IMG/VR virus record: IMGVR_UViG_3300032313_001465 | Coordinates: 64,001-128,000 of that record | Origin: a virus | DNA length: 64,000 nt | Strand: one strand, 5' to 3' | Shown here: piece by piece, positions 30,558 through 48,597 of the stretch | Numbering within the stretch: the first letter of the stretch is position 1 | Layout: each line of letters opens with the position of its first letter | The notes under the pieces: model-generated | Told to the model about the DNA's origin: nothing | Database searches by the model: none | The model's input: only the letters and a program-made list of their open reading frames with translations | Translations under genes and position numbers: made by a program

Positions 30558-31316
30558 ATGATTAAATTACTAAGTCTTTTAAAAGAAATAAAAGGTAAAC
30601 CTAAAGCTATCTTTTTATCGGGTCCTGCAGGATCTGGGAAAACATTTATTTCTAAAAAATTAATCTCTTTAGACAAATTTCAAGTAATTAATATAGATGA
30701 TACTTATGAGGAACTATTAAAATCTTCGGGTATGGGGATGAATCAAAAGAATTTTAGTCCTGAAGAGTTATCTCAAGCTACTAAATTAATGGGTCGTGCT
30801 CAAGCAGTAACTAAAGAAAAATATGCTAAAGCACTTGAAGGATTAAACAATGTTATTATAGATGGTACAGGTGCTGCTTCAAAACCACTAATAAAGAAAA
30901 AATCAGAATTAGAAGCACTAGGATATGATACATTCATGTTAATAATTTGGACATCCCCTATAACTTCTTTATCTAGAAATGCAGAACGTGAACGTTCATT
31001 AATGCCAAGTATTGTGTTACGTACTTGGAGAGACATTAATAAAAATATAGATTTATATAAACAAGCATTTGGAGATAATATAGCTATAATCAATAATGAT
31101 CCTGAAGGTTTAGAAACCAAATTTGATGTTGAAGATATTAAGAAAAAATATTTTACAAAACAAATGGGAAAACCAAAAACACCTGCAGAGCAAGAAAAAT
31201 CTAAAAAAGAAACAGAACAGTTGAATAAAGATATAGAACAATTTATTAAAGAAAAACCACAATTCAACACCTTATCAGACGCTCAATCCAAAATAAATAA
31301 ATTCATAAACAGCTAA
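30558..31316 (+). CDS. P-loop kinase (zeta-toxin/AAA_33-like) with MIKL..LKE leader
   Basis: GPAGSGKT, INIDD, IIDGTG, RNAERER. Confidence 0.8.
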   Translation: MIKLLSLLKEIKGKPKAIFLSGPAGSGKTFISKKLISLDKFQVINIDDTYEELLKSSGMGMNQKNFSPEELSQATKLMGRAQAVTKEKYAKALEGLNNVIIDGTGAASKPLIKKKSELEALGYDTFMLIIWTSPITSLSRNAERERSLMPSIVLRTWRDINKNIDLYKQAFGDNIAIINNDPEGLETKFDVEDIKKKYFTKQMGKPKTPAEQEKSKKETEQLNKDIEQFIKEKPQFNTLSDAQSKINKFINS

Positions 31317-31852
31317 TGATAAAACTTTTAGACCTCTTACGCGAAGAAAAACTAAATATTCTTAAACCTAGACGTTCCCCGGAAGAACGCCAATCTAACT
31401 TTCTTATTATAACCAATAAGAAAATTGAACAGTACATGAAGGATGGAGGCAAAGGTGATCTTGATTTAGCTAATACTAAAATTACCTCACTACCAAATGG
31501 TCTAAAGGTTGGCGGTTTTCTGGATTTAAGAAATTCTTCCATCACTACATTACCAAATGGTTTAACGGTTGGAGATTATCTTTATTTAAGAGATACTAAA
31601 ATTACATCATTACCCAATGATTTAACGGTTGGGGGTGAACTTGATTTAGCTAATATTAAAATTACTTCATTACCAAATGATCTAACGGTTAGGGGTGATC
31701 TTAATTTAAGAGATACTAAAATTACATCATTACCAAATGGTCTAACAGTTGGAGGTAATCTTGATTTAGAAAATACTCCAATAAGTAAAAAACATTCCGA
31801 AGAAGAAATTAAAAAAATGGTTCCGGGAGTAAAAGGCAATATTTATATATAA
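31316..31852 (+). CDS. Leucine-rich repeat protein A (20-aa units)
   Basis: 5 full and 1 partial xLxLxxTKITSLPNxLxVGG units; leader MIKLLDLLREE. Confidence 0.85.
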   Translation: MIKLLDLLREEKLNILKPRRSPEERQSNFLIITNKKIEQYMKDGGKGDLDLANTKITSLPNGLKVGGFLDLRNSSITTLPNGLTVGDYLYLRDTKITSLPNDLTVGGELDLANIKITSLPNDLTVRGDLNLRDTKITSLPNGLTVGGNLDLENTPISKKHSEEEIKKMVPGVKGNIYI

Positions 31853-31863
31853 ACATAAAACAA

Positions 31864-32187
31864 ATGAAAAAATCAGAATTAAGACAAATTATTAAAGAGG
31901 AAATTAGTAAGGTGTTGAGTGAGATACAAACACCAATAGCTAATAAAACAGACAAATTTTTATTATATAGAAAGCCATCATCTTCCCCTAGTCCGGGTCA
32001 TGGTGCATATCTATTTTCATCTGGAAATACCCTAGATGAGTTATTTGATAATTGGATATTAACTATGCAATCCGGAGGATATGGGTATAAAGGTCAATAT
32101 TTAGATAATGAGCGCAAACGATTTGATATTGAACAAGAAAAATATTGGTCATCTCCTAGTTCATTTTACACACTCAAAATAAAATAA
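31864..32187 (+). CDS. Hypothetical protein with MKKSELRQIIKEEI leader
   Basis: Leader nearly identical to the next gene's; remainder unrelated. Confidence 0.7.
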   Translation: MKKSELRQIIKEEISKVLSEIQTPIANKTDKFLLYRKPSSSPSPGHGAYLFSSGNTLDELFDNWILTMQSGGYGYKGQYLDNERKRFDIEQEKYWSSPSSFYTLKIK

Positions 32188-32192
32188 ATATA

Positions 32193-32585
32193 ATGAAAAA
32201 ATCAGAATTAAGACAACTTATTAAAGAAGAAGTTGAATCTATAGTAAATGAGACACGTACTAAAGATTTTGAAGTAAAAGATGAAATTGGTAAATTTTTT
32301 GTAGTTACATCCCCATATAAAGATAGTACTAAAGAAGATATATTATTTGATTCTGATGTTTTTCATTTTGCAAATCAAGTTAAAGAAGGACTATCATTAC
32401 ATGATGTTATAGGATTATACAAAAACAAATCAGATGCCAATAGAATAGCAACTGAAGCCTTAAAAGAACGTGATACCCATTTAGATGAATTAAAATCATC
32501 AATGGAAGAATTCAGAAACCATAAAAAAGAAACAGAAGATAAAAAATCAAAAGCTAAGGAATTAATTCAAAAATTAAAAAAATAA
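32193..32585 (+). CDS. Hypothetical protein with MKKSELRQLIKEEV leader
   Basis: Shared leader. Confidence 0.7.
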   Translation: MKKSELRQLIKEEVESIVNETRTKDFEVKDEIGKFFVVTSPYKDSTKEDILFDSDVFHFANQVKEGLSLHDVIGLYKNKSDANRIATEALKERDTHLDELKSSMEEFRNHKKETEDKKSKAKELIQKLKK

Positions 32586-33637
32586 TGAATTCTTTAGTAG
32601 AATATTTAATTATGCCTATTATAGGAGAATCTACCTATAAACCGGGAGTAGTATTACTTCCAGGAGCATTCAAACCCCCAACCGAAGGACATTTTAATTT
32701 AGTTAAGGAATTGGCTATGGATCCTAGAACAAAAGAACTAATAATTATTATATCCTCAGGTCAGAGAGAAAATATAGGTTCTGAAGAATCTGAAAAAATA
32801 TGGAAAATATATCTTAAACATCTTCCAAGTAATGTTAAAGTAATGATATCTCCTGAAAGTTCTCCAGTTAAAGCAGCATATAGTATTATAAAAGATAATC
32901 CCGATACTCATTATTTAGTAGCAGTAGGATATAGAAATGAAAAAGATAAAAAGGATATCGATAGAATCAAATCCTCAGAAAAATATCCAAATGCTGAAGG
33001 ATTAGTATATAAAACAGATTCATCCACAAGAGCTATAGACGCCCGAAAAGAACTAGAGTCAAATAATCAAGAAGGATTTAATGAATATTTACCATCTCAA
33101 CTTACCCCATCTGAAAAAAATAAAGTGTGGAATATATTAACTAAACCCCCAATCCAAGAGTCGGATCGAAAAGGAATTAAAGCATTTTCCCGTGAAATTA
33201 TAACAACCAATGAATCACAATCTAAAGATTTTTCATTTTCATTAGAGGGGGGTTGGCTTCTTAAAGATGGGTTATTATCTTTATCAAATTCCATGATTGA
33301 AAGTGGAATAAATATTAAGCCGCTTCCTAAAGTTATATTAATAGAAGATGATAAAAGCAATGCATCTAATATTTTAGGTAAAACCGCTTATTATGATCCA
33401 CAGAATAAAACAATAGTGCTTTATACTTTAAATCGTCATCCTATTGATGTGATGAAGAGCTTTTGTCATGAAATGTGGCATCATCATCAAAACCTAGAAG
33501 GTAGATTAAACAATATAAATACTACTAATACTAATGAAGATGATTATTTAAATGAAATAGAAAAAGAAACATACTTAAATAGTCAGATTATATATAGGAA
33601 TTGGGCTGATAAAATGAGAAAATTAAATAATGATTAA
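32585..33637 (+). CDS. (H/T)xGH nucleotidyltransferase fused to an HExxH zincin-like domain
   Basis: PGAFKPPTEGH; C-terminal CHEMWHHHQ..EKE. Confidence 0.75.
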   Translation: MNSLVEYLIMPIIGESTYKPGVVLLPGAFKPPTEGHFNLVKELAMDPRTKELIIIISSGQRENIGSEESEKIWKIYLKHLPSNVKVMISPESSPVKAAYSIIKDNPDTHYLVAVGYRNEKDKKDIDRIKSSEKYPNAEGLVYKTDSSTRAIDARKELESNNQEGFNEYLPSQLTPSEKNKVWNILTKPPIQESDRKGIKAFSREIITTNESQSKDFSFSLEGGWLLKDGLLSLSNSMIESGINIKPLPKVILIEDDKSNASNILGKTAYYDPQNKTIVLYTLNRHPIDVMKSFCHEMWHHHQNLEGRLNNINTTNTNEDDYLNEIEKETYLNSQIIYRNWADKMRKLNND

Positions 33638-34148
33638 ATTGAAAGACATATTCGAAAACGAAGTAATAGATCAGGTATTTCAAATATATTGTGATCTTGA
33701 TGGGGTGTTAGCAGATTTTGATAAACGATTCGAATATTTTGCAGGGATGTCTCCTTCTGAATATGAAAAAGCATTCGGAACTAAAAAGTTTTGGGAACTG
33801 ATAGACGAAAAAGTAGGTGTAAAATTTTGGACAGGAATACCGTGGATGTCGGATGGTAAAACACTTTGGGAATTTCTTCAACCACACAATCCTATACTTT
33901 TATCCGCTCCCTCTAGAAATGAATCAAGTAAAATGGGTAAAAGAATTTGGGTTAAACGAAACATGCCTGGAACTAAACTTATTTTAGCAAGTAGAAGTAA
34001 TAAACAAAACTATTCTGATAAGTCTAACATACTTATCGACGATAGATTAGACACAATTGAAGAATGGAGAGCAAGAGGAGGAATAGGGATCCATCATACT
34101 TCAGCCGCATCAACAATAGCACAATTAAAAAAATTAGGATTTAAATAA
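33630..34148 (+). CDS. HAD 5'(3')-deoxyribonucleotidase-like phosphatase
   Basis: CDLDGVLADF, LSAP, LIDDR; leader MIKLKDIFENE. Confidence 0.85.
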   Translation: MIKLKDIFENEVIDQVFQIYCDLDGVLADFDKRFEYFAGMSPSEYEKAFGTKKFWELIDEKVGVKFWTGIPWMSDGKTLWEFLQPHNPILLSAPSRNESSKMGKRIWVKRNMPGTKLILASRSNKQNYSDKSNILIDDRLDTIEEWRARGGIGIHHTSAASTIAQLKKLGFK

Positions 34149-34154
34149 ATAAAT

Positions 34155-34550
34155 ATGAATATAAGATTAGTAGGTGATACCAAAGAAGATTTACAAGCCA
34201 TTGTTAAAGACATTAAAGATTACTTTAAAAATGTTAACAAAGATTTTACAAGTAAATTTACAACCGAAAAACGTAAATTTGCAGAAGATGGAAAAATTGT
34301 TGAAAAATCAATAGATTTTATTACCGCTAAAGATAATGTTAATGGTAAAGAAACAACCATAAAACTTATTCCTATGTTAAACCCAACTGAAATGAAAATT
34401 GAATTGGGAAATGAAGGAGAATCTGTTATTAAAGGTAAAATCAAAAATCAACTTAAGGGTCGTGGTAAGATTAAATCGTATACTAAGGATGCTAAAAAAC
34501 CAATGAATGAAACACATTTATTGACTATAATCAAATCTATAATGAAATAA
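34155..34550 (+). CDS. Hypothetical protein
   Basis: ORF track. Confidence 0.65.
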   Translation: MNIRLVGDTKEDLQAIVKDIKDYFKNVNKDFTSKFTTEKRKFAEDGKIVEKSIDFITAKDNVNGKETTIKLIPMLNPTEMKIELGNEGESVIKGKIKNQLKGRGKIKSYTKDAKKPMNETHLLTIIKSIMK

Positions 34551-35122
34551 TGAGTGAAAATGTTTTAAAAAAGGAATTTAATCCTAAAGATGTAAGTAGA
34601 TTACGAAACCTTATCCAAGGTAAATATGGAGATAACACAATCACAGGAGTAGGTTATGCTAAGCCATTTATTTATAGAGAAGAAAATGATGTGTGGGAAG
34701 AAGATGGTAGAAGATGGACTATAAAAAACGGAATTAAACAAAATGTTACTAAATTAGACGAGGCTAAAAAAACACATCTTTTACCTTTATTATGTCCTTC
34801 TTGTAAATCACCAATGTCACCTCATAGAGATAGATCATTTTATAATATTCATAAGATGTGTTTAAATTGTGTTTCTGTAATGGAAACTAAAATACGTCGT
34901 GAAGGAAAGTGGGAAGAATACGAAAGAAATATCCACAACAATGAAATAGATAATCTTATAAGAGAATTTAAGTTATGGGTAGAAGATGATTCAAAAGATA
35001 AAAACCAATCATATATCACGGAAGCTGGTGATCTTGAGAAATGGGTTGGGGGTTCTAGTACTGAACAAAAAGAACAACAAATTCAAGAAACCCTCAAATA
35101 TTTAGAAAATTTAAAGAAATGA
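34550..35122 (+). CDS. Zinc-ribbon protein
   Basis: CPSC..CLNC. Confidence 0.65.
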   Translation: MSENVLKKEFNPKDVSRLRNLIQGKYGDNTITGVGYAKPFIYREENDVWEEDGRRWTIKNGIKQNVTKLDEAKKTHLLPLLCPSCKSPMSPHRDRSFYNIHKMCLNCVSVMETKIRREGKWEEYERNIHNNEIDNLIREFKLWVEDDSKDKNQSYITEAGDLEKWVGGSSTEQKEQQIQETLKYLENLKK

Positions 35123-35742
35123 ACATAACTTCTATTACATTATTATCTTCAATTTTAGTAGCACTAATTACTTCAGTATTAGGTCCCGTATTATTAGTAT
35201 GGGTTCGAAGTAAATTTGATAATACTAAGAAAATCGATACATTAGGTGAAGCGTTTAAAGTCAATGAAGAAGTAGACCATCAATTAGATATTATGATGGA
35301 CAAACTAAAATGTGATAGAATATGGATAGCTCAATTTCATAATGGAGGGCATTTTTACCCTACAGGAAAATCTATTCAAAAATTCTCTATTTTCTACGAA
35401 AAAATATCACCACTAATAGTTCCAGTTAGAAACATATTCCAAAATATCCCGACCTCATTATTTCCTAAAACATTAGTTAAACTACACAATGATGGGGAAC
35501 TCATAATTCATGATAATGAAATAAGTAATTATCAAGATATATCCTATTTATTTGATAATTGTAAAGCTAAATCATTATATATGATAGCCATAGAAGACTT
35601 AGAAGGACATTTTATAGGAATGATTTCAGTATCATATGAAAATAGTAAACATGTTCTGAATCAAGAAGAATGGATATTCTTACGTCAAAAAATAGGAGCA
35701 ATTGGAAGTATATTAACTAATTATTTAAACCCACAAAAATAA
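35119..35742 (+). CDS. TM + GAF-like domain protein (T4 holin T-like architecture?)
   Basis: N-terminal TM; CDRIWIAQFHNG..KSLYMIAIEDLEGHFIGMISV. Confidence 0.6.
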   Translation: MNITSITLLSSILVALITSVLGPVLLVWVRSKFDNTKKIDTLGEAFKVNEEVDHQLDIMMDKLKCDRIWIAQFHNGGHFYPTGKSIQKFSIFYEKISPLIVPVRNIFQNIPTSLFPKTLVKLHNDGELIIHDNEISNYQDISYLFDNCKAKSLYMIAIEDLEGHFIGMISVSYENSKHVLNQEEWIFLRQKIGAIGSILTNYLNPQK

Positions 35743-35749
35743 AACAAAA

Positions 35750-35947
35750 ATGGATAATTTTAGCGTAACTAAATGGAATAGAGAAAGATATATTGATGAA
35801 AACAAAGATGTTAAATCAACTAAAAAAATACAAGAAGCATATAATTCATTAATTTCTATGATTGAGAAAAAATCAAAACAATTAAATGATGATGAATTAT
35901 ATGAATTACATGAAAAAATGAAATCGTTTTTTACAAAATCAATTTAA
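35750..35947 (+). CDS. Hypothetical protein
   Basis: ORF track. Confidence 0.6.
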   Translation: MDNFSVTKWNRERYIDENKDVKSTKKIQEAYNSLISMIEKKSKQLNDDELYELHEKMKSFFTKSI

Positions 35948-35989
35948 CTTTTATACTATTTTACATATTTATTAATAAACAATAACATA

Positions 35990-36517
35990 ATGAACAACGA
36001 ATTTGATTTCAAAGGGTATTTAAAAAATAACCCACTATTAAAAGAAACTAATATTAATATCAATATTAACGAATCTAAACTTAGAGAAAGAGTAAAAGCC
36101 GAAATTTTATCTGCATTAAAAGAAAATGATGCATATGAAGGAATTGGGGAATTTGATAGTAATAAATCCGCTCGTATTAAAGAATTTATTATAGCACTTA
36201 ATAGGCTTGTAGATGAATATCACGCAGAATTATACTTAAATGATAGTGTATTTGATGCTATTTCAATGGTGATAAAATATGCTCAAGAAGAAGCAATGAA
36301 TATGAATGAAGCTGAAGAAAAAGACCAACCAGAAGAAGAAGAAACTCCAGAAGTAGCAGACGTAGAACCTGAAATTACGGGTGATGAAAAAATAGTACAA
36401 GACGCTTTAACAAAGGCATATGAAACTGCTAGTAAAATGGGTGATAAAAAATTATTAGACCAAATAGGAAACACTATTACATTTTTTACCCGTACTCACA
36501 TTGTAAGTAACAAATAA
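35990..36517 (+). CDS. Acidic hypothetical protein with multiple (L/I/M)xE sites
   Basis: LKE, INE, LKE, MNE; late-promoter motif upstream. Confidence 0.65.
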   Translation: MNNEFDFKGYLKNNPLLKETNINININESKLRERVKAEILSALKENDAYEGIGEFDSNKSARIKEFIIALNRLVDEYHAELYLNDSVFDAISMVIKYAQEEAMNMNEAEEKDQPEEEETPEVADVEPEITGDEKIVQDALTKAYETASKMGDKKLLDQIGNTITFFTRTHIVSNK

Positions 36518-36545
36518 AATTTTTATAAACCAAAACCAATCATTT

Positions 36546-36722
36546 ATGAACACACAGGACTTAATTACCAGAATGCAAGAAGTATTTGAAACTCTAATTC
36601 ATGAGGGCTCAAGTAAATTCAAATCAGGAAAAGCTAAAGCTAGAAAAGCAGCAAGTGAATTAAAAAAATTAGCAGGTGAATACAAAAGAGCATCTTTAGA
36701 AGAAAGCAAAACCACAATCTAA
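36546..36722 (+). CDS. Histone H1-like (Hc1-type) small protein (not in ORF track)
   Basis: Hand-translated 58 aa, ..[30 protein letters not shown]..; TAATG-coupled to the next gene. Confidence 0.7.
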
Positions 36723-38350
36723 TGACCCAAACATCAGGCCTCATCGTAAAAGGTGTAAATCCTATAGATAATCATGAAATAAGTAATGTTGTCCAAAGTG
36801 GTACATTTTACGGTGAGTGGTTTCCTGATAAAAATTATTGGTTTTTTCCTTTTGATGAGCAAAATTATGCATCATTAAGAGATGATTTAGAACAAAAATT
36901 TATTGATACTGGAATTCATGCAGTATATACTGAAGTTAATGTTGATGTAGAATTAAACGAGTCTCTATCTAAAAAAGTAATGGATGCTAGAGAGAAAATT
37001 CTTAAAAACATGAAATCAAATAAAAGAGAATTAGTAAAGCGATATGGTGCTGATGCTGAAAAAGTTATGTATGGTAGAGCAACAAATTTAGCAAAAAAAC
37101 AAATAAATAAAATGAATACAGAAAAATTAAGAGAACTTATAAAAAGTAAACTTCTAGAAGCTCCTAAAAAAGATCTAAATAACGACGGAGAAATAAACTC
37201 AAAAGACTATTTAATGGCTCGTGATAAAGCTATTAAGGCAAATATGGGTACAAACGAAGCTGAAGAAGGTGATTATGTTTCTGATTTTATTAAAGCATTA
37301 GAAGATGTTAAAAGTGTTTTTTTATCTAAAGCCAAAAATAACAAAATAAAAGGCCCAATTTTAAAAGCATTTAATGAATTTATTGACGAAATTGATAGAC
37401 TTGCCCCTCAAAAATTAAAAGAAGACGAAAATGAATATCCAGAATTAACTGAAGCATATGTTCCAGATAATATTAAAGAATTTTCCAAGAGAAAGGGTAT
37501 TACTTCTTTAGTTAATAAAGCAGCAGGATGGGCTGAAAAAATAGGCAAAAGAATTACTGGAGGTACTGCTATTGGTAAAAACTATGGTACATTAGTATTA
37601 GATATGGGTTATCAAAAGGGAGAAATTAGAATTAATATTGAAGATGAAATAATTGAATTATATGGTGAAGAAGTTAATAGCTTTCCTGAATTCAAACAAG
37701 TATATATGGATGAAAACGATAGTAAAGAATCGGAATCATTAAATGAAGATGATTATTTACAATCAGATGACGAATCAGATATGGCTAAGTCGCAATTAAT
37801 ATCAATTCAATCTAGCGTTTCTAAATTAATGAATATGATTAAAGATAATGATCAACTAGACGCTTGGGTACAAGCTAAATTAACTAAAGCAGAAGATTAT
37901 CTTGATTCAGTATCAGGATATTTAGAGGGTGAAAGTAGTTTAACTGAAAATGAAAAAGGATGGGATGTTAAAAAAGATACTCCAGAAATTAAAGCGTTAA
38001 TGGTTACTGCAGATGATACATCAAAAACCCCATCAGAAAGAGATAAAGCAAGACAAAAAGCATACGATTTACGTAATAAAATGTCTAAAGGTAAAATGGA
38101 AGAGAATGTAAGCTTAAGAAAAAATGATATTGTTATTTATAAAGGTAAAAAATTTAAAATAGGCATGATTGAAAATACTGGTGATTTTGATTTAGTTTAT
38201 CTAAATACTATGGATGGTCAACCTGCCGAAGGTCCTAATGGAGGTTATTTAAGAGTACACGCTGATGGGTTACAAAAACAATTGAAAGAGAATGATTTTG
38301 CTAAAACATTAGCTGAAAAATTAGCTAAACAAATTAAAGGAAATGACTAA
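36722..38350 (+). CDS. Multi-module putative internal head protein
   Basis: Segments separated by LNE/LLE/LKE/LTE; [13 protein letters not shown] loop; [22 protein letters not shown] module. Confidence 0.65.
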
Positions 38351-40000: not shown

Positions 40001-40813
40001 ATGAACAATAGACTCACTCGACTAATTAAAGAAGTATTATCATCCCCACCTAAAAAAGATTGTGGATGTGGTTGTCATGGAAAATGTACCAAATCCCCTA
40101 CATTAAACGAAAATTTAGGAGTTAAAGTAATTATGACTGAAAATATGAAGTATCATATTGATAACAAAAAACCACTAATCGAAAATACATTCCGCTATGG
40201 TTCAAAAGCATTTTTAGATTTATGGGCTGAAGCTAGATACTTATATTCACGTGATGCTATTGATTTAAGTGAATCTGATAAACAAATTATTTTAGAAACA
40301 CATTTAGGAGAACGTGGTTTATTTAATGGTGAATTAGTTCCATTAGATTTACCTATGGAAGAATTAGACGAAAATACAGATGATGTAGTGGCAGTATTGA
40401 ATAATCCTAACATAGCTGACGACGTAAAGTCAATGTTATTCAACGCATATAAAAACGGACAATTAACATCTACCCAAGTAATCAATATAATTAAAAAAAC
40501 CGTTAAAGAGCATTTAAACGAAGCAGAATTTAAAGGTAAAGAAGTACAATTAGGTAAACCTAAACGTGGCGGTTCTAAAAAATTCTTTGTATATGTAAAA
40601 GATCCTAAAACCAAGAAAGTTAAAAAAGTATCATTTGGAGATACAACTGGATTGTCAACTAAAATAAATAACCCCAAAGCAAGACAAGCTTTTGCCGCTC
40701 GTCATAAGTGTGGTACTGGGGAACCTAAAACAAGTGCTAAATATTGGTCATGTCGTTTACCTCGTTACAGCAAGCTTTTAGGATTAAAGAATTCATTTTC
40801 AGGATTTTGGTAG
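40001..40813 (+). CDS. Multi-module protein with a basic C-terminal domain
   Basis: LNE-separated modules; KKVSFGD..ARQAFAARHKC..YWSC. Confidence 0.65.
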   Translation: MNNRLTRLIKEVLSSPPKKDCGCGCHGKCTKSPTLNENLGVKVIMTENMKYHIDNKKPLIENTFRYGSKAFLDLWAEARYLYSRDAIDLSESDKQIILETHLGERGLFNGELVPLDLPMEELDENTDDVVAVLNNPNIADDVKSMLFNAYKNGQLTSTQVINIIKKTVKEHLNEAEFKGKEVQLGKPKRGGSKKFFVYVKDPKTKKVKKVSFGDTTGLSTKINNPKARQAFAARHKCGTGEPKTSAKYWSCRLPRYSKLLGLKNSFSGFW

Positions 40814-40870: not shown

Positions 40871-41656
40871 ATGACAAAAATATATTATTTACATAGAGGA
40901 AACAACATTCCATTTTATATTGGGAAAACTATAAATGAAAAGGATAGAAAACACCAACATAAAAACAAGTTAGGGAAAGATGTAACTTTAGAAATTATAG
41001 ATGAAATTCCCACAAAGGAATGGAGATATTGGGAAGAATTTTATATTTCACTTTTTAAACATTGGGGATTTAAATTAGAAAATAAAAATAATGGTGGTTG
41101 TGGTAGTATAGGAGGTTATAAAAACCCCTTAACCTCAGAAGCCCATAAAGGGAGAATTAGCCCAAATAAAAATAAAGGGAAAAAAATAATCCAATATGAC
41201 TTAACAGGAAAATTTATTAATGAATGGGATAACATAAATGAGGCCATACTCACCTTAAATCTTACAATAACTAATGAAAGTATTCGTCAATGTTTAATTG
41301 GTAAAAGTAAAAAATCAGCTAATTTTATCTGGAGAAATTTAACCCAAGATTACCCAATCCATTTATCTAGTAACGAAGTAGAATATATATTAAAAAAAAC
41401 AAATGGTCCTAAAGGTCAAAAACTTAATACCGGAGAAAAAATCAGCCAATCTTTAAAAGGAAAACGAAAATCCCCTCAATTCATAAAAAATATAAGTAAA
41501 CCTGTAGCTCAATATGATAAACAAGGAAACTATCTTACACAATATAAAAGTATCACAGAAGCCGCTTTGGCTGTTAATGGATGGAACGAAAACATATGTC
41601 AGTGTTGTAAAGGAAACAAAAAATCATCAGCTGGATATTTTTGGCAATATTTATAA
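40871..41656 (+). CDS. GIY-YIG homing endonuclease with NUMOD repeats
   Basis: KIY..PFYIGKT, LENKNNGG, IIQYDLTG, ISQSLKG, AGYFWQY. Confidence 0.85.
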   Translation: MTKIYYLHRGNNIPFYIGKTINEKDRKHQHKNKLGKDVTLEIIDEIPTKEWRYWEEFYISLFKHWGFKLENKNNGGCGSIGGYKNPLTSEAHKGRISPNKNKGKKIIQYDLTGKFINEWDNINEAILTLNLTITNESIRQCLIGKSKKSANFIWRNLTQDYPIHLSSNEVEYILKKTNGPKGQKLNTGEKISQSLKGKRKSPQFIKNISKPVAQYDKQGNYLTQYKSITEAALAVNGWNENICQCCKGNKKSSAGYFWQYL

Positions 41657-41659
41657 TAA

Positions 41660-42076
41660 ATGATAAAACTTTTAGATCTTTTACGCGAAGAAAAGCTTGA
41701 TATCCTTAAACCTAGACGCTCTGAGGAAGAACGCCAAGCTAACTTTCTCATTGCAACCAATAAAAAAATTGAACAATACATAAAGGATGGAGGCAAAGGT
41801 GATCTTAATCTACAAAATACCCCAATTACTACATTACCAAATGATTTAACAGTTGGAGGTAATCTTTATTTAGATGGTAGTAAAATTACTACATTACCAA
41901 ATGGTCTAAAGGTTGGTGGTTATCTTGATTTAGATAATACTAAAATTTCCACATTACCAAATGATCTAAAAGTTGGTAGTGATCTTGATTTAAGAAATAC
42001 TCCAATAAGTGAAAAATATTCCGAAGAAGAAATTAAAAAAATGGTTCCCGGAGTAAAAGGCGATATTTATACATAA
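41660..42076 (+). CDS. Leucine-rich repeat protein B, paralogue of 31316
   Basis: Near-identical N- and C-caps; 3 full and 1 partial repeat. Confidence 0.85.
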   Translation: MIKLLDLLREEKLDILKPRRSEEERQANFLIATNKKIEQYIKDGGKGDLNLQNTPITTLPNDLTVGGNLYLDGSKITTLPNGLKVGGYLDLDNTKISTLPNDLKVGSDLDLRNTPISEKYSEEEIKKMVPGVKGDIYT

Positions 42077-42086
42077 ACATAAAATA

Positions 42087-42632: not shown

Positions 42633-43007
42633 GTGATTAAGCTTATAGACATATTCAATCAACTTCTTCAAGAAGAAAAAGAAAAACGTGATAGATGTTT
42701 ACGTATTGCTGATCGCAAATACGATAAACCATCTGCTTATAAATCAGGAGCCGTTGTAAGGTGTCGTAAAGGAGAGATTTGGAAAGACTTAAAAGAAGAA
42801 GAATCACTCCATAAATGGTTTAAACGTTCTGGTCCTAAAGGTAAAGAAGGTGGATGGGTAGATTGCAACGCACCTGATGGTAGTGGAGGATATAAAGCAT
42901 GTGGTAGAAAAAAAGGTGAAAAACGTTCTAAATACCCATCTTGTCGTCCTACACCTGCACAATGTAAATCACCTGGAAAAGGTAAAAAATGGGGAAAAAC
43001 AAAATGA
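42633..43007 (+). CDS. Basic Cys-rich protein with MIKL leader
   Basis: PSAYKSGAVVRCRK, LHKWF, WVDC, CGR, YPSCRP. Confidence 0.7.
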   Translation: MIKLIDIFNQLLQEEKEKRDRCLRIADRKYDKPSAYKSGAVVRCRKGEIWKDLKEEESLHKWFKRSGPKGKEGGWVDCNAPDGSGGYKACGRKKGEKRSKYPSCRPTPAQCKSPGKGKKWGKTK

Positions 43008-43702
43008 TCAAACTATCAGATATCTTAAAAGAAATTATTGAGGGAACTTGTGGATATAATACAGATGTTAAAACAGGTAAAAAATTAGATACACCTGGTG
43101 GATTAAAAGAAGTAGATCCTAAAAAAGGAACAGGTAAAAAACCTAAGGGATCAGGTCGTCGTTTATACACAGATGAAAATCCAAAAGATACTGTATCTAT
43201 TAAATTCAAAACTAAAGAAGATATAGTTGATACATTAAATAAAGATTCATTTAAAGCTAAATCCCACGCTCGCCAATCCCAAATTATTAATTTAATACAC
43301 CAACGCGTTAGAGCTGCATATGGTAAAGCAAAAGATCCTGAAGTAAAATCTAGATTAAAACGCGCTCTAGACTATATTGAATCTCGTAAAGAATCATCTA
43401 AAAAGAAAACAGAACGTTTAAATAAGCTAAAAGAAACATCAGACCCACAATCAGGTAAAGCAGCACCTTATGGTTCAGGATATGCTCCTGTTAAAGAATT
43501 AGTAACAGATACAGAAGTTATCTGTGATAACTGTGGATGGGAATGGGATATTGAAGATGGAGGGGAAGATTTATATATTTGTCATAAATGTGGTCATGAT
43601 AATACTCCAGAACAATTAAATGAAAAATGTTGGAAAGGATATACTCAAAAAGGTATGAAAACAATGTTTGGTAAAAAATATCCAAATTGTGTAAAAAAAT
43701 AA
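43004..43702 (+). CDS. Multi-module basic protein with Zn-ribbon
   Basis: Leader MIKLSDILKE (ATG 43004); CDNC..CHKC; terminal CWKGY..PNCVK. Confidence 0.7.
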   Translation: MIKLSDILKEIIEGTCGYNTDVKTGKKLDTPGGLKEVDPKKGTGKKPKGSGRRLYTDENPKDTVSIKFKTKEDIVDTLNKDSFKAKSHARQSQIINLIHQRVRAAYGKAKDPEVKSRLKRALDYIESRKESSKKKTERLNKLKETSDPQSGKAAPYGSGYAPVKELVTDTEVICDNCGWEWDIEDGGEDLYICHKCGHDNTPEQLNEKCWKGYTQKGMKTMFGKKYPNCVKK

Positions 43703-43720
43703 CATATTTATAATTAAACA

Positions 43721-44038
43721 ATGGTAAAACTACTTCAATTACTAACTGAAGCTAAAGAAAGCTTTGAACAATTTGCTACAAATCGTTTAGCAGGTGCTGA
43801 AAAAATTATAGCTAATGCCAAAGAAAAGGGTGGTGATGCTTTATTAACATACACCCACTTTAAAATAAAACCATCTTACTATAAAAAAGCTATAGATGGG
43901 AAATTTGATAAAGAATCCGCTAAAAAAGAATTTGAGCAAACATACAAAAAAATATCATTAGATATGACTCAAACTGAATTTCAAAGAGAGGTTGGTCGTT
44001 TAGAAGTATTAGGTGAACTATTAATAAGAGAAAAATAA
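43721..44038 (+). CDS. Hypothetical protein with MVKLLQLLTE leader
   Basis: Shared leader; late-promoter motif upstream. Confidence 0.7.
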   Translation: MVKLLQLLTEAKESFEQFATNRLAGAEKIIANAKEKGGDALLTYTHFKIKPSYYKKAIDGKFDKESAKKEFEQTYKKISLDMTQTEFQREVGRLEVLGELLIREK

Positions 44039-44039
44039 T

Positions 44040-44459
44040 ATGATTAAATTAACAGATATATTAAACGAAGCAGAGATAAATAAATGTCCGTCTCCAACTC
44101 AAAGTATTGAGTTAAACCTTCAAAATAGACAGAAGGCAATTAATGAATATGGATATGGTCCCTTAAATCCTAATGAACCTAATGAAAAGTTTTGGCAAGC
44201 TAAAGCAGATATGTGGAAACTTGATTCTGTAAAAGAGGCTAAAACATCACGTTGTGGTAATTGTGCGGCATTTGATGTTACAGAAAAAACACTAAATTGT
44301 ATAGCTAAAGGAATAGGAAACGATGAAGGATCAGAAGATCCATTTGACGTAATTAAAGCAGGACAATTAGGATATTGTAGGTTTTTAAAATTCAAATGTG
44401 CTGCTGCTCGAACTTGCGATGCTTGGGTTGTTGGTGGTCCAATTAAAGATCCAATGTAA
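44040..44459 (+). CDS. Cys-rich protein (HiPIP-like Cys spacing?) with MIKLTDILNE leader
   Basis: CGNCAAF..GYC..KC..TCDAW. Confidence 0.6.
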   Translation: MIKLTDILNEAEINKCPSPTQSIELNLQNRQKAINEYGYGPLNPNEPNEKFWQAKADMWKLDSVKEAKTSRCGNCAAFDVTEKTLNCIAKGIGNDEGSEDPFDVIKAGQLGYCRFLKFKCAAARTCDAWVVGGPIKDPM

Positions 44460-44722
44460 TGAAACCATATACTGACGTTTTAACAACGGAAAATACAATT
44501 ATTAGGGAGTTTGGTGATAACATAGACCCCGTTGAATTAAAATGGCATATGGACTCTTCTTCCCGCCACGTTACCATTTTAGAGGGTAAAGGATGGAAAT
44601 ATCAAGAAGATAATAAATTACCTTTGGAACTTAACGAAGGGGATTGTATATTTATACCAAAACAAACATTTCACCGTATTTATAAAGGAACAACCCCATT
44701 AAAAATAAAAATTAAACAATGA
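44459..44722 (+). CDS. Cupin-domain protein
   Basis: WHMD, EGDCIFIPKQTFHRI. Confidence 0.75.
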   Translation: MKPYTDVLTTENTIIREFGDNIDPVELKWHMDSSSRHVTILEGKGWKYQEDNKLPLELNEGDCIFIPKQTFHRIYKGTTPLKIKIKQ

Positions 44723-45009
44723 AAAAACCAGAATTAAAGCAAATTATTAAAGAAGAAATACAAAAGATATTAAGTGAACAGCAAAAACGTATGCAAAAGC
44801 TTGCAGGTATTAACGAAGATAACACATTTAGTGACAATTACACAGTTAGTAATGAACAATATAAATTGATGGATAGTTATGTAAATCAACGTGCACTCCG
44901 TGATTTTCTAAATGCCGCTGAAAACATGATGGAAGATTTTCATGAAGCAGGATTTCCGGCAAGAGATGCATTTTATTGGTTTTATACTAAGCTAACTGCA
45001 AATATTTAG
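44719..45009 (+). CDS. Hypothetical protein with double leader (MKKPELKQIIKEEI + RMQKLAGI)
   Basis: Both motifs visible in the translation. Confidence 0.7.
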   Translation: MKKPELKQIIKEEIQKILSEQQKRMQKLAGINEDNTFSDNYTVSNEQYKLMDSYVNQRALRDFLNAAENMMEDFHEAGFPARDAFYWFYTKLTANI

Positions 45010-45044
45010 GTAGATTATATAACAGATAAAATAAGAAATGCATA

Positions 45045-45326
45045 ATGGCAAAATTAAACAAACAATTCCGACGTATGCAAAAGCTTGCAGGAATTCTTAA
45101 CGAAAACGAGGAAATAGATAATTTTATTGATGTATTAACAGATATGGCTATTAAAGCTAACATCATTAAAGACAAAGATATAAATAAAGACGAAGTAATA
45201 GATGCATTATATGATACATGGGAAGATATGGGATTTGATGATTATGAAGAAACAGGACAGGGGATTAGTACATCAGATTATAATAGATCTTTAGAAATAT
45301 TTACCAATTATATTAAAGATAAATAA
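45045..45326 (+). CDS. Acidic hypothetical protein with RMQKLAGILNE leader
   Basis: DNA ACGTATGCAAAAGCTTGCAGG shared with the previous gene. Confidence 0.7.
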   Translation: MAKLNKQFRRMQKLAGILNENEEIDNFIDVLTDMAIKANIIKDKDINKDEVIDALYDTWEDMGFDDYEETGQGISTSDYNRSLEIFTNYIKDK

Positions 45327-45337
45327 TAAAACATTTA

Positions 45338-45420
45338 AACCGATTTCATAGCCGGTTGCTCTAACAAGAGATAAAAATATGGAAGCTGTGGCTCCGATCG
45401 AAAGATTGGCGCCACTTTTA
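45338..45420 (+). ncRNA. Candidate structured RNA (pseudoknot + terminator hairpin)
   Basis: AACCG/CGGTT stem; its loop TTTCATA pairs with TATGGAA; inserted CTCT/AGAG hairpin; GAAA-capped terminal hairpin + TTTT. Confidence 0.5.
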
Positions 45421-45450
45421 CTTGGAAATTTAAACAAAATTTATTACATT
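45421..45450 (+). promoter_or_regulatory. Host sigma-A-type promoter
   Basis: CTTGG at 45421, TACATT at +24. Confidence 0.6.
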
Positions 45451-45476
45451 AAAATATAAGTTAAAATAAAGAAATA

Positions 45477-46820
45477 ATGAAAAGAGACAAAATTGTAATT
45501 GTAGGTGGAGGAGTTGCAGGTATTAGTGCTGCTACTAAACTTGTAGATAATGGTTATCCTGGAGAACTTATCACAATAATTGATATGGGTAAGGATCCAT
45601 ATAAAAGATTACCTGAAGAAGTAATGACAGGTTTCCTAGGTGCTGGAGGTTGGAGTGATGGTAAATTGACTTACCACACAGCAATTGGAGGTCAATTATC
45701 AAAATATACAGGCGAGGATAAAGCAATGGAATTAATGGATCAAGTGATTACCAATTTTAAACGTTTTCATCCTAAACCTGAAGAAGTACAATGTTCAAAT
45801 CCTGTTGAGGAACCTGAATTTATAAAACCATATTTTGGTTTACGATTGTTCCCTGTATGGCACGTTGGCACAGATTATCTATCTGAAATTGCTAAAAATT
45901 GGTACGATTATTTAGTAGAGAAAGGTGTACAATTTCACTGGGAAACTAAGGTAAATTATATTGATTTTAATGATAATTATGTTGTTGGAGAAGTTCAAGA
46001 AAAAAATATAGATTGGCATTATGATGAACTTATTTTTGCTGTAGGTAAATCAGGTATTGATTTTGCTCAAGAATTAGCTAATCAATATCAACTACCAGAC
46101 GAACCTAAATCAGTACAAATTGGTGTTCGATTTGAAGCACCACAACACCATTTCCAAAAACTAATCGATATTTCATATGATTTTAAACTTTATAGAAAAT
46201 TTGAAGATAAAGGCGTTTCGCTTCGCTCTTTTTGTACAAACAACAATGCTGCTTATGTTGCTGTAGAAGAAACATATGGAGACCATTCATATAATGGACA
46301 TGCTAAGAAAGACGAAGCATATAGAAACAATATGACTAACTTTGGTATTTTGATGGAAATTAAAGGTATTGAAGACCCATTTACTTGGTCACGTGAGGTA
46401 GTAAATAAATTACAATCAAACAACACAGGTTTATATTACAGCCCGTCTCGTACTCCTTCAATTACATCTGAAGGCAATAATGTAAGCGTAACTCAAATTA
46501 GTACTGAGGAATATTATGAGATGAAGAAAAATTTTGGAAAATATTTCAAATATGTTGAAGATTTTATAGTAGATATGAAAAAAGTATTCCCAACATTAGG
46601 TGATGATTGGGGTATTTATATTCCTGAGGTAAAATATTTATCACCTGAAGTAAAAGTAGATTACTCTAGTTTATCTCTAATAGATTACCCAAATGTACAC
46701 TTTGTTGGAGATGCTTTATCAGCTCGTGGTATAACAGTAGCAGGTTCTCAAGGTGTTTACGTAGCAGAACATATCCTTCAAAATACAGATTTCCCTGATT
46801 TTATAGAAAATTTTAATTAA
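45477..46820 (+). CDS. FAD-dependent oxidoreductase (COG2509-like)
   Basis: VGGGVAG, GAGGWSDGKL, IGVRFE, RSFC, FVGD..ARGI. Confidence 0.85.
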   Translation: MKRDKIVIVGGGVAGISAATKLVDNGYPGELITIIDMGKDPYKRLPEEVMTGFLGAGGWSDGKLTYHTAIGGQLSKYTGEDKAMELMDQVITNFKRFHPKPEEVQCSNPVEEPEFIKPYFGLRLFPVWHVGTDYLSEIAKNWYDYLVEKGVQFHWETKVNYIDFNDNYVVGEVQEKNIDWHYDELIFAVGKSGIDFAQELANQYQLPDEPKSVQIGVRFEAPQHHFQKLIDISYDFKLYRKFEDKGVSLRSFCTNNNAAYVAVEETYGDHSYNGHAKKDEAYRNNMTNFGILMEIKGIEDPFTWSREVVNKLQSNNTGLYYSPSRTPSITSEGNNVSVTQISTEEYYEMKKNFGKYFKYVEDFIVDMKKVFPTLGDDWGIYIPEVKYLSPEVKVDYSSLSLIDYPNVHFVGDALSARGITVAGSQGVYVAEHILQNTDFPDFIENFN

Positions 46821-46825
46821 AATAT

Positions 46826-47101
46826 ATGTCTAAAAAAGAAAAATACTTCGAAACCAAAACCATGAAGATAGGAGGAGCACTCCATCATTTCTTTAGAACT
46901 GAGGAATCACCAAATTGGAAATACCATAATTTCTCAGGTCCTGCTATTGAACCTGTAGAAAGTGGAAGTACATTTAAGAAATCATATTACTTATATGGTA
47001 TTCAATATACATCTGAACAATTTAAAGAAGCAGTTAGAGATAGAGAAGGTCTTCCATTCCACAAAACGGCAGCATTTAAACAAGGATCTAACAGAACTTA
47101 G
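46826..47101 (+). CDS. Hypothetical protein
   Basis: HNFSGPAIE..YYLYG. Confidence 0.65.
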   Translation: MSKKEKYFETKTMKIGGALHHFFRTEESPNWKYHNFSGPAIEPVESGSTFKKSYYLYGIQYTSEQFKEAVRDREGLPFHKTAAFKQGSNRT

Positions 47102-47130
47102 TTGGGAGTATAAATAAAATTTATTATCTT
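47101..47130 (+). promoter_or_regulatory. Host sigma-A-type promoter
   Basis: GTTGG at 47101, TATCTT at +24. Confidence 0.55.
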
Positions 47131-47145
47131 ATAAAAAAATAAGTT

Positions 47146-47676
47146 ATGAAAATAGGATTTGTAGGAAGCATCAGTGTTGGGAAAACCACTTTAGTAAATG
47201 AATTAGCTAAATTAGAGCAATTTAAAGAATATTATATAGCAACTGAACGTTCTAAATATTTGAGAGATTTAGGCATTCCATTAAATACAGACTCTACTTT
47301 ATTAGGTCAAACTATATTCTTATCAGAACGTTGTTCTGAATTATTAAGGGATAAGGTATTAACAGATAGAAGTATAATTGATGTAATGGCATTTACTTCT
47401 TTATCTAAATCAATGTCAAGAATAGAAATATTATCATTTTGTGATTATGCATCAAATTTTATATCTTTATACGATCATATATTTTATGTGTCTCCGGAAG
47501 GTGTAAAGTTAGAGGACAATGGAGTGAGAGCGGTTGATGCAGAATATAGAGATCAAATTGATGAAGAAATTAAATATTTATTAGGAATTTACAAATCTAA
47601 AATTAAAAACTTTCACGTAATATCAGGTACTGTTGAAGAACGTATAAAACAAGTTAAACAAGCACTTTCTTTATAA
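47146..47676 (+). CDS. AAA_28 (NadR/Ttd14-like) P-loop kinase
   Basis: GSISVGKTTL, TDRSIID, EDNGVR, SGTVEERI. Confidence 0.8.
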   Translation: MKIGFVGSISVGKTTLVNELAKLEQFKEYYIATERSKYLRDLGIPLNTDSTLLGQTIFLSERCSELLRDKVLTDRSIIDVMAFTSLSKSMSRIEILSFCDYASNFISLYDHIFYVSPEGVKLEDNGVRAVDAEYRDQIDEEIKYLLGIYKSKIKNFHVISGTVEERIKQVKQALSL

Positions 47677-47697
47677 TATTTATCATAAAAACATATA

Positions 47698-48597
47698 ATG
47701 AAGAAATCTGATCTTAAAAAACATATTAAAGAAGAAATACTTTCGATCCTAAAAGAAGCATCAACAGCATTAGTAACTACTAAAGGAGGAACAAAACCTG
47801 TATCATTCTCATCCCCTTCAGAATTAAGCGCTCTTAAAACGGATGCTAACGTATCATCAATCACAACAACAGCAGGGCAAAAGATTAAAGAAACTAAAAA
47901 AGAAATGAAAGAAGATAAATTCGATGATAAAATAACAAATCTTGAAAAATATACTTATACTGTAAATGGGAAAAAAGTAACTCCGGAAATTGGTTATTTT
48001 GATCATTCATTAAAAGCTATGATATCCACTCCAAGAAGTGGTGATGAGTATTTTGATTATGAATTTTATAGAATTGGCGAACCTGATGAAAGTGGTAATA
48101 TTGAATTATCTCCTGAAAAAGGTAAAAAAGGAATGTATACTGAAGAAATGGATACTTCAGGATTTAAATCTGGTAGAGAATTTATTAATATAAAATTACA
48201 AAAATATCCTAAAGCTGTAGCTAAAATTAATCAATTAATTAATATGATTGGTGAAGATAAATTCACAATGGAAATGGCTAAATGGTTGTTTGATTTCTTT
48301 AATAATGCTTCATACGAAAGTCCAGTTAACGAAGCAAAAATTGAATCTGATTTTTTTGAACGAGAACCTAAATCTAAAGATATTGAGAAAGGAGAAGGCA
48401 TAATAGCTAAAACTACAAAGCTTTTAAAATTTCAAAAAGAATTAAAAACATTATCTAAAGATATGCAAGATTTAGCTGCTGAATATAGAGAAGCTGAAGG
48501 ATCTGATAAAGATGAAATTTTACGAACATTAAAAGTTAAAACTGCTGCTAAAAAGGAATTAGAGAAAAAAATAGAACAACTTGAAAGATATGTATAG
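47698..48597 (+). CDS. Multi-module protein with MKKSDLKKHIKEEI leader
   Basis: Leader plus LKE/IKE/MKE/VNE sites. Confidence 0.7.
   Translation: MKKSDLKKHIKEEILSILKEASTALVTTKGGTKPVSFSSPSELSALKTDANVSSITTTAGQKIKETKKEMKEDKFDDKITNLEKYTYTVNGKKVTPEIGYFDHSLKAMISTPRSGDEYFDYEFYRIGEPDESGNIELSPEKGKKGMYTEEMDTSGFKSGREFINIKLQKYPKAVAKINQLINMIGEDKFTMEMAKWLFDFFNNASYESPVNEAKIESDFFEREPKSKDIEKGEGIIAKTTKLLKFQKELKTLSKDMQDLAAEYREAEGSDKDEILRTLKVKTAAKKELEKKIEQLERYV

Follow-up and report, generated by a model that had tools for sequence, protein, structure and literature searches.

The window analysed here is a stretch of 64,000 nucleotides from the genome of an uncultured, T4-like lake phage of 148.6 kb, a relative of the Far-T4/Immutovirus phages for which Flavobacterium phage immuto represents a cultured relative. 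The window harbors a series of genes whose products begin with short, shared N-terminal leaders and continue into payloads that are otherwise unrelated. Across the genome there are 21 such leader genes, or 22 when w15958 is counted, and the leaders fall into four N-terminal classes, A to D. Genes are designated by their start in window coordinates (w-numbers), and numbers preceded by "genome" refer to the whole 148.6-kb record. The leader genes of the window and the relevant head genes are as follows.

15958..16302, + strand: member of a conserved class B family, adjoining baseplate genes; late-type promoter motif 12 nt upstream
30558..31316, + strand: P-loop kinase (AAA_33 / Zeta-toxin-like), class A leader; ORF opens at 30552, leader Met at 30558
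31316..31852, + strand: LRR-like protein, class A leader; paralogue of 41660 and genome 387
31864..32187, + strand: class B leader (20 aa) and payload; late-type promoter motif 25 nt upstream
32193..32585, + strand: class B leader and payload
33630..34148, + strand: NT5C-like HAD 5'-nucleotidase, class A-like leader (Glu at 9 and 11)
35990..36517, + strand: class D leader and payload; late-type promoter motif 25 nt upstream
40001..40813, + strand: Cys-rich payload, variant leader ending in LIKE; payload family has class A or B in other phages
41660..42076, + strand: LRR-like protein, class A leader; late-type promoter motif 13 nt upstream
42633..43007, + strand: DUF5872 protein with a GTG start; class A leader whose cutting motif, LQE, spans 12-14
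43004..43702, + strand: class A leader and payload; ORF opens at 42989, leader Met at 43004
43721..44038, + strand: small helical bundle, class A leader; most conserved tagged family
44040..44459, + strand: Cys-rich payload, class A leader; payload family has class D in L031, L049 and L058
44719..45009, + strand: tandem leader (class B, then class C) and payload
45045..45326, + strand: class C leader (copy of the scaffold C-terminal peptide, then I/L-x-Glu) and payload
47698..48597, + strand: class B leader and 299-aa payload; late-type promoter motif 22 nt upstream
53621..54034, + strand: small protein of the head module, encoded between portal and protease, leader ending in LKE
55788..56408, + strand: prohead protease of the T4 gp21 family (Peptidase_S77); ORF 55761-56408, Met at 55788
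56610..57677, + strand: scaffold protein; N-terminal 10 aa end in DLLKE, in the class A register; C-terminal peptide ..RFQKLAGII is the class C core
57718..59361, + strand: major capsid protein (Gp23 family); LLE at 7-9, GLLE at 33-36, LVIE at 57-60

A preliminary description of this DNA had listed eight class A starts (30558, 31316, 33630, 41660, 42633 with its GTG, 43004, 43721 and 44040) and four class B starts (31864, 32193, 44719 and 47698), and a leader is present at every one. Its looser class B sites hold at 15958 (a conserved family), 40001 (a variant leader) and 53621 (an LKE leader); the site at 38343 is doubtful, as the hydrophobic-x-Glu end is absent and 28 of 29 homologues have no recognizable leader. 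Both of the classes it recognized are real, but it missed class C (45045 and 44719) and class D (35990). The block from 30558 to 48597, which it proposed as a candidate cargo system, does contain many leader genes, although leaderless genes (ferritin-like, cupin, FAD oxidoreductase, AAA_28 kinase and homing endonuclease) are interspersed with them and further leader genes are found elsewhere in the genome. Nine of these lie outside the window, including genome 387, 20582, 44218, 146358, 147109, 147521 and 148074. The phage also encodes GroES and GroEL, with one class B gene directly upstream of the pair, and MKK starts are common across this genome.

All four leader classes terminate in the same hydrophobic-x-Glu motif. 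The class A leader is 10 aa long, MIKLxDILxE, with L/F at position 4, I/L at 7, L at 8 and E at 10, and the class B leader is 20 aa long. Class C leaders are of around 22 aa, with a core that corresponds to the C-terminal peptide of the scaffold protein, and class D leaders are FDLKKFL-like and 12-19 aa in length. The class A and B motifs are found 8 and 9 times, respectively, at N-termini of the proteome, against 0 internal matches in approximately 36,000 positions, more than chance would give. When loci were chosen other than by the class A pattern, and Glu10 was not required, Glu10 was nonetheless present in 14 of the 15 ORFs that start M[IV][KR][LF]xx[IL][LFIV], compared with a background Glu frequency of 7.3%. 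Among the 139 IMG/VR proteins listed for class A, entropy stays at 0-3 bits over the first 10 positions and is 3.6-4.1 bits from position 11 on. For class B, the 129 listed proteins are hydrophobic at positions 14, 17 and 18, which the search pattern had left unfixed, and 92 of them have Glu at position 20, beyond which entropy climbs. Of the matches listed, 118 of the 148 for class A and 118 of the 144 for class B have no more than 10 open codons upstream. The leaders are amphipathic, charged helices in which a Lys, Glu or Asp recurs every 2-3 residues, and in an AlphaFold model of w43721 the leader forms a separate, low-confidence helix (pLDDT 59 for residues 1-10) ahead of a payload bundle at 88-99, for which a fold match was sought and none was found. 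Sec, Tat or lipoprotein signal peptides were considered and rejected, since there is no hydrophobic core of 7-15 residues behind a basic N-region.

The similarity between leaders ends at the Glu, and the payloads beyond it are unrelated by BLAST, in agreement with the earlier observation that unrelated domains follow the tag. A catalogue of payloads across related genomes, as previously recommended, returned at least 120 IMG/VR loci and at least 66 BLAST-unrelated payload clusters for class A, and at least 120 loci and at least 78 such clusters for class B. Nearly all of the listed loci belong to the clade of this phage, with which other genes are shared at 110 of the 120 for class A and at 118 of the 120 for class B, and the largest class B payload cluster among the listed matches is the w15958 family, with 31 members. 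The same payload can be found behind different tags: both the LRR payload and the LYHFT family occur behind class A or class B leaders, and the DUF5872 payload of w42633 lies behind a class B-like leader in immuto and several contigs. The immuto counterpart of w53621 likewise has a class B-like leader, starting MKKSQ. Homologues of the w30558 kinase carry a class A leader in 12 of 17 loci, as do those of w33630, whose payload shares 36% identity with the NT5C protein of immuto, in 6 of 21. Homologues of the leaderless neighbour families are themselves leaderless, with a leader in, for example, 0 of 31, 0 of 30 and 0 of 26.

The tagged proteins are mostly of 90-300 aa and have one domain. Some domain fusions are seen among tagged proteins of relatives, and w36722 is a mosaic. 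The expectation of well over a dozen tagged enzymes is too high for the window, where only the P-loop kinase and the NT5C-like hydrolase look enzymatic; its other payloads are two LRR-like proteins, one DUF5872 protein and a remainder without assigned function. Both enzymes have intact motifs, Walker A in the kinase and DxDG in the HAD hydrolase. In related contigs, tags are also found on lysozyme and on a Kinase-PolyVal-like domain (a weak match). Payloads have a median pI of 5.85, no different from the 5.92 of other proteins (p = 0.38), and acidic ones are numerous. They are not the small, basic, DNA-associated payloads by which the T4 system might be recognized, although the criterion is a loose one, given that the capsid-targeting sequence (CTS) also packages T4 Alt and foreign proteins.

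In the phage's own proteome the only internal match to the class C core is the scaffold C-terminus. Among 121 IMG/VR matches, 91 are at the C-terminus of scaffold-like proteins and 25 are at the N-terminus of diverse small proteins, where I/L-x-Glu follows.

The phage encodes a protease that could remove such leaders. The gp21-like protease previously noted at 55788 matches Peptidase_S77 (PF03420) with an E value of 3.8e-29, aligns to the T4 gp21 structure 5JBL (E 4e-15) and keeps the residues that line up with the GELNHP and SRG segments of T4; a gp21-type (S77) protease is present in 9 of 9 large related records. The LLE and LKE motifs reported at the capsid and scaffold N-termini are present, and the protease has an LIE of its own, in an N-terminus ending QLLIE and followed by T, as in T4 gp21. 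The capsid LVIE site at 57-60 lies approximately 4 residues or less from where the mature N-terminus of T4 gp23 aligns, and the motif sites of scaffold, protease and capsid recur across the clade. Late-promoter motifs had also been claimed for the block, and a late-type motif, ATATTTAT, is indeed found upstream of leader genes as well as of the tail sheath, tube and hub genes. It lies immediately before 10 of the 21 leader genes versus 24 of the 173 others (p = 7e-4), including some leader genes located among early genes. In immuto, no enrichment of the late motif was seen directly upstream of leader genes (2 of 19 versus 18 of 197).

What the sequences show directly is the anatomy and modularity of the tags, their spread through the clade, their resemblance to T4 propeptides and to head proteins of this phage, and that the protease is encoded. 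The agreement with T4 propeptides in position, length and register, the phage's own S77 protease, the motifs of its head proteins, class C, the exchange of leaders and the late promoters together support a modular address, and every sequence-level test favors the suggestion that it is swappable and ends in a gp21-type cutting site. The leaders are best read as probable T4-type capsid-targeting propeptides that have been expanded and diversified, to which we assign a probability of around 0.6. From this reading we infer docking, cleavage, packaging and ejection. The leader would form a short N-terminal amphipathic helix by which the new protein docks onto the assembling prohead core, with classes A, B and D probably binding the scaffold, and class C probably binding the same partner as the scaffold's own C-terminal tail. 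After closure of the shell, the S77 prohead protease would cut on the C-terminal side of the Glu in the closing hydrophobic-x-Glu, freeing the payload within the head, from which it could exit with the DNA at infection. Recombination may swap tags and payloads, as is suggested by their being separate modules, giving rise to a clade-wide library of tagged proteins. An anti-defence or metabolic role for the payloads is speculation.

Not all of the evidence sits easily with a capsid address, among it the non-basic payloads and the lack of late-motif enrichment in immuto. Hydrophobic-x-Glu is a frequent motif (2.1% of positions), the N-terminus of the protease has Asp in place of Glu in some relatives, and the kinase and 5'-nucleotidase are ordinary metabolic enzymes with no obvious need for packaging. 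The N-terminus of TerL (terminase) fits the class B pattern though TerL is not an internal head protein, and w15958 lies within the baseplate module. These last two points would also fit docking helices for a non-capsid partner, such as GroEL/GroES, a membrane, a host protein or the tail/baseplate assembly, removed or not, as would the amphipathic character of the leaders, the non-basic payloads and the class B gene next to the phage GroES/GroEL pair. We consider such a partner unlikely, as it leaves unexplained the protease motif at a fixed position in every class, the scaffold-tail copy in class C, and a class A register shared with T4 propeptides and the phage's own scaffold N-terminus. Entry into the prohead as assembly helpers or core filler, to be degraded and expelled like scaffold fragments rather than to act as effectors, is less probable again. 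The precedent is T4 gp22, gp67 and gp68, which are fragmented and mostly exit the head (PMC9026906), and many payloads do have internal hydrophobic-x-Glu sites; folded enzymes with intact motifs and many unrelated families are nevertheless poorly suited to a structural role.

The two remaining explanations place the origin of the similarity elsewhere. Were it imposed at the nucleic-acid level, through translation-initiation bias in an AT-rich, Shine-Dalgarno-poor phage or through a recombination-promoting DNA cassette, the common MKK starts and the codon preferences of class A (Asp6 is GAC in 63%, Ile7 is ATA in 95%) would fit. However, conservation in the 30 nt upstream is at most 0.15 bits, 140 class A leaders among the matches listed are encoded by 127 distinct DNA strings, synonymous codons match body usage at 5 of 7 fixed residues, leaderless neighbour families never gain a leader, and conservation stops exactly at the Glu, all of which makes this very improbable. 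It is scarcely credible that the leaders represent the remnant of a single family that has diverged everywhere except at its N-terminus: the three LRR-like proteins are true paralogues, but the remaining payloads have no BLAST similarity and differ in fold and domain, and one payload family can have several leader classes.

The reading of the leaders as capsid-targeting propeptides can be extended, tentatively and with the odds somewhat against it, to a multi-address code for capsid loading in Far-T4/Immutovirus-type phages, in which at least four removable classes, one of them a scaffold-tail copy, pre-load well over 100 payload families as injected takeover or counter-defence tools. Within such a code, the classes may differ in the docking site, copy number or order of release that they specify, and the payload pool may include kinases, nucleotidases, NUDIX proteins, an exonuclease, a peptidoglycan hydrolase, LRR binders and many proteins without assigned function. 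If true, an aquatic phage group that is both large and abundant would have a general delivery system with several tag types and a very large exchanged payload set, and a location and time of action would be assigned to about one tenth of these phages' genes, most of which are otherwise uninterpretable. It would also provide a natural set of tag variants for studies of capsid-cargo recognition, including the scaffold-tail copy, and a pointer to proteins active at the very start of infection, within its first seconds. The literature searched yielded neither a virion proteome nor N-terminal sequences for this phage or its only cultured relatives; the existence of a cultured relative, Flavobacterium phage immuto, makes capsid loading directly testable.

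The kind of system is already known from T4, whose tag is in use for packaging foreign proteins in engineered T4, and the multi-class, scaffold-mimicking, clade-wide form of the tag was not found in the literature searched. The cargo-loading peptides of encapsulins are short modular peptides that send unrelated enzymes into an HK97-fold shell. They are, however, usually C-terminal and not removed, with neither DNA nor protease involved, and offer an analogy only. In the giant phages phiKZ, 201phi2-1 and SPN3US, a diverged gp21 homologue cuts many head-internal or ejected proteins after Glu (PMC9026906, PMC7411985), but the motif is S/A-x-Glu, the proteins form large paralogous families, and no short shared N-terminal address is described. 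Polyvalent proteins (Iyer et al. 2017, PMC5512222) share the proposed purpose, in that effector domains are delivered with the DNA; identity with them was rejected, as they have 2-15 domains per chain, whereas here there are mostly single domains with their own short address.

The closest comparison is with T4 itself, where the CTS is found on IPI, IPII, IPIII and Alt and is cut off by gp21, the prohead protease (Mullaney and Black; PMC9026906, PMC3012670), which cleaves after L/I-x-E; in IPIII, residues 4 and 7 act in targeting and 8 and 10 in processing (PMC9026906). Both systems have an N-terminal propeptide (10-19 aa in T4) that ends in L/I-x-Glu and precedes unrelated payloads, and in both a gp21-family protease gene adjoins the scaffold and capsid genes. 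The propeptides of T4 IPII, IPIII and gp24 are 10 aa long, hydrophobic at 4, 7 and 8, acidic at 6 and Glu at 10, a layout that is the same in class A, and the gp24 peptide, ending LLRE, matches class A in register at 6 of 10 positions. T-even phages similarly have polymorphic internal proteins with the CTS as their sole common part. In contrast, T4 has three or four tagged proteins, as against around 22 tagged genes here for which packaging is predicted from sequence, and its gp24, gp22 and gp21 are structural or assembly proteins encoded by single-copy genes, whereas here the peptide is found on many accessory genes. The tags described here also differ in sequence from MKTYQEFIAE, come in at least four classes of 10-22 aa, with two in tandem on one gene and one class copying the scaffold C-terminus, and are attached to mostly non-basic payloads that include enzymes.

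The leader pattern in this phage is real. From its sequence, it is best read as a putative T4-style capsid-targeting system that would have been diversified into several classes of tag and expanded to about one-tenth of the genes. The whole contig represents a single phage of 148,581 bp with around 29% G+C, of which bases 64001-128000 form the window. Two of its head genes are:

57718-59361, major capsid protein, T4 Gp23 family
55761-56408, prohead protease, Peptidase_S77 (E 3.8e-29)

The capsid protein shares 59% identity with that of the cultured Flavobacterium phage immuto, with weaker matches in Microcystis phage Mel-JY01 and Rhodothermus phage RM378; its family and closest matches place the phage in the Far-T4/Immutovirus part of the T4 superfamily. 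The head genes are ordered terminase (49256), T4-type portal (50848), protease, scaffold (56610) and capsid. The gp21-like protease that the preliminary description located at 55788 is borne out by the Peptidase_S77 match and by an alignment to the T4 gp21 crystal structure 5JBL (E 4e-15), in which the His-Pro and Ser-Arg-Gly segments are retained. No nucleotide similarity was detected between the tagged block and cultured phages, among which the protein family of the tagged gene at 43721 was found solely in immuto phages.

All of the leader starts listed in the preliminary description are present in the sequence. Class A comprises 10 residues with the consensus MIKLxDILxE, and class B comprises 20 residues that start with MKKSELRQIIKEE and end hydrophobic-hydrophobic-x-Glu. 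Two classes had been overlooked: class C, with the core RMQKLAGI followed by I/L-x-Glu, occurs at 45045 and also makes up the latter half of the leader at 44719, and class D, which is FDLKKFL-like, is found at 35990. Among the looser class B sites, 15958 stands as a conserved family and 40001 and 53621 as variant leaders, whereas 38343 is doubtful. Extending the survey to the entire genome yields further members at genome positions 387, 20582, 44218, 146358, 147109, 147521 and 148074, which brings the total to 21 clear cases, or 22 with the 15958 family, the two variants being additional. N-termini contain 8 copies of the class A motif and 9 of the class B motif, against none at about 36,000 internal positions; the class C core has one internal copy, which forms the final residues of the scaffold protein.

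Some of the added members belong to a second array of tagged genes outside the window (genome 146358-148412 and 387-791), with leader classes arranged as B, C, B, C and, once the contig ends are crossed, another B. The genes of this array are preceded by A/C-rich repeats (caaaaacaatcaaaaacaa) resembling the DNA ahead of the capsid gene. Within the window, a nucleotidyltransferase-like protein (32585-33637; ..PTEGHF) has a conserved N-terminal peptide that ends hydrophobic-hydrophobic-x-Glu before the first strand. The same peptide is present in the related phage loci L049 and L105, and it may constitute a fifth leader class.

The tag system is common to a whole clade of aquatic phages. IMG/VR was scanned with degenerate DNA patterns for classes A and B, each of which was found at 120 loci or more. 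For class A (at least 120 loci), 148 matches were listed, with no more than 10 open codons upstream in 118 of them; they represent 139 distinct proteins, whose positional entropy is 0-3 bits over the first 10 residues and 3.6-4.1 bits thereafter. For class B (at least 120 loci), 129 proteins were listed, in which positions that the pattern did not fix are nonetheless hydrophobic (14, 17 and 18) or predominantly Glu (position 20, in 92 of 129). Payload diversity in related genomes, which the preliminary description had proposed cataloguing, amounts among the matches listed to 66 BLAST-unrelated clusters for class A and 78 clusters for class B. Genes besides the leaders are shared with our phage at 110 of the 120 loci listed for class A and 118 of the 120 listed for class B, mostly from the same block and from the head and baseplate modules, and all nine large related records tested encode an S77 protease. 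By a strict pattern the phage has 20 tagged genes, against 13 in immuto and 8-9 in two complete relatives, so the set is expanded in the phage under study.

Leaders and payloads behave as separable modules. An LRR payload is found twice behind class A and once behind class B, and a DUF5872 payload follows class A in the phage but in immuto a leader resembling class B. The full immuto genome has the same four leader classes on partly different payloads; its leader-bearing genes include those at 24569, 102294, 111675 and 112261. Tagged payload families remain tagged, sometimes with a switch of class (the 44040 family has A or D, the family with a QVGxLYHFT motif A or B), while the leaderless genes of the block (primase, nuclease, the genes at 32585 and 34550, cupin, FAD oxidoreductase and AAA_28) have only leaderless homologues.

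As to what the payloads are, the claim of well over a dozen enzymes and binders goes too far for the window, where only two payloads look like enzymes; Pfam matched just a few of the tagged window proteins and PHROGs gave nothing useful. AlphaFold predicts the 43721 protein as a confident helical bundle with the leader helix detached in front at low confidence, and this model has no fold match in the PDB at E < 0.001; the model of the 44040 protein, with a pLDDT of 42, was of too low quality to interpret. Across the clade, class A payloads include NUDIX, RNase T-like exonuclease, M23 peptidase plus phage lysozyme, Zeta-toxin-like kinases, HAD hydrolases and DUF5824. Three class A payloads from related loci are notable:

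L082:1725-2969, M23 peptidase plus phage lysozyme
L113:96-635, weak 2H-phosphoesterase/Acb1-like match, below the Pfam cut-off
L029:7606-8097, QVGxLYHFT-motif family, no Pfam match

The kinase (30558) and NT5C-like protein (33630) are encoded by separate tagged genes in the window. Relatives carry fused kinase/NT5C or NMNAT/NT5C proteins (L007:4723 on the minus strand, L054:4342 and L021:1846; L042:2023 and L105), the kinase and NT5C-like fusions having 406-411 aa and a single class A leader. Together with the NMNAT-like fusions to NT5C, they suggest one nucleotide or NAD-related pathway. The 542-aa mosaic ORF at 36722-38350 resembles a polyprotein that could be cleaved: ORFs that are separate in other phages start exactly after its LNE (residues 78-80), and in L008 and L011 its segment 336-406 follows a class A leader on its own. 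The block also contains a homing-endonuclease-like gene (40871-41656) with NUMOD1 domains and a GIY-YIG-like N-terminus, which has paralogues at genome 24216 and 130030.

No word is more enriched upstream of genes than the 8-mer ATATTTAT, found 12-40 nt ahead of the genes for tail sheath, tube, hub and tape measure in both the phage and immuto. Of the 21 leader genes, 10 have it directly upstream, compared with 24 of 173 others (p = 7e-4); the 10 include the leader genes at genome 20582 and 44218, which are situated among early genes. Enrichment of the motif before leader genes is not significant in immuto, where both tagged genes of the early region have it.

The similarity of the leaders might reflect translation-initiation bias, as the preliminary description had allowed, or a DNA cassette. 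Both are rejected, since the leaders vary freely at synonymous sites, the DNA upstream of their start codons is unconserved, and leaderless controls argue the same way. A nucleotide-level constraint on class A nevertheless points the other way: at IMG/VR loci L005-L124, Asp at codon 6 is GAC in 63% of cases compared with 17% in gene bodies, and Ile at codon 7 is ATA in 95% compared with 46%, the remaining fixed residues having the codon use of gene bodies. Residual paralogy is rejected, as the tagged proteins of the phage and immuto have no mutual BLAST similarity beyond their first 26 residues, the exceptions being three LRR-like paralogues and a small number of orthologous pairs. Secretion signals are likewise rejected because the leaders have no hydrophobic core.

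Capsid targeting has points against it. The N-terminus of TerL (..IKQIIREEY..), which is no internal head protein, fits the class B pattern across the clade (window 49256-50836, L099, G003:117371 and G005:607), and payloads, which would be expected to be basic as in T4, are not, and do not differ in charge from other proteins.

[quoted passage not shown] Read directly from the T4 genes, internal proteins IPII and IPIII begin MKTYQEFIAE and gp24 begins MAKINELLRE, with ..LIAE in gp22 and ..QLLIE in gp21. Class A matches the T4 propeptides in length and layout, with hydrophobic residues at 4, 7 and 8, an acidic residue at 6 and Glu at 10, the last present in 14 of 15 class A-like starts at loci not selected via class A. 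The head proteins conform as well: the first 10 scaffold residues end in DLLKE, the protease shares with its T4 counterpart an N-terminal ..QLLIE and the Thr after it, and LVIE at 57-60 of the capsid protein lies no more than about four residues from where the mature T4 gp23 N-terminus aligns; these motifs recur in relatives. At the level of sequence, class C provides the strongest link between leaders and head, in that, among 121 matches to its core in IMG/VR, 91 form the C-terminal end of scaffold-like proteins and 25 lie close to the N-terminus of various small proteins, with a cutting motif next. The 221-aa proteins of L257 and L259 have a class B-like N-terminus and the scaffold tail peptide at their end, and thus appear to be addressed at both ends.

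In the literature searched, we found neither the multi-class form, the scaffold-tail tag and the present scale, nor a virion proteome of RM378, Mel-JY01 or immuto, and the Far-T4 genome paper makes no mention of shared leaders. Capsid-targeting tags are already known as a kind, and reviews suggest that the T4 sequence lets T4-like phages load varied proteins; some of the domain types behind class A are reminiscent of proteins whose delivery alongside phage DNA has been proposed (PMC5512222).
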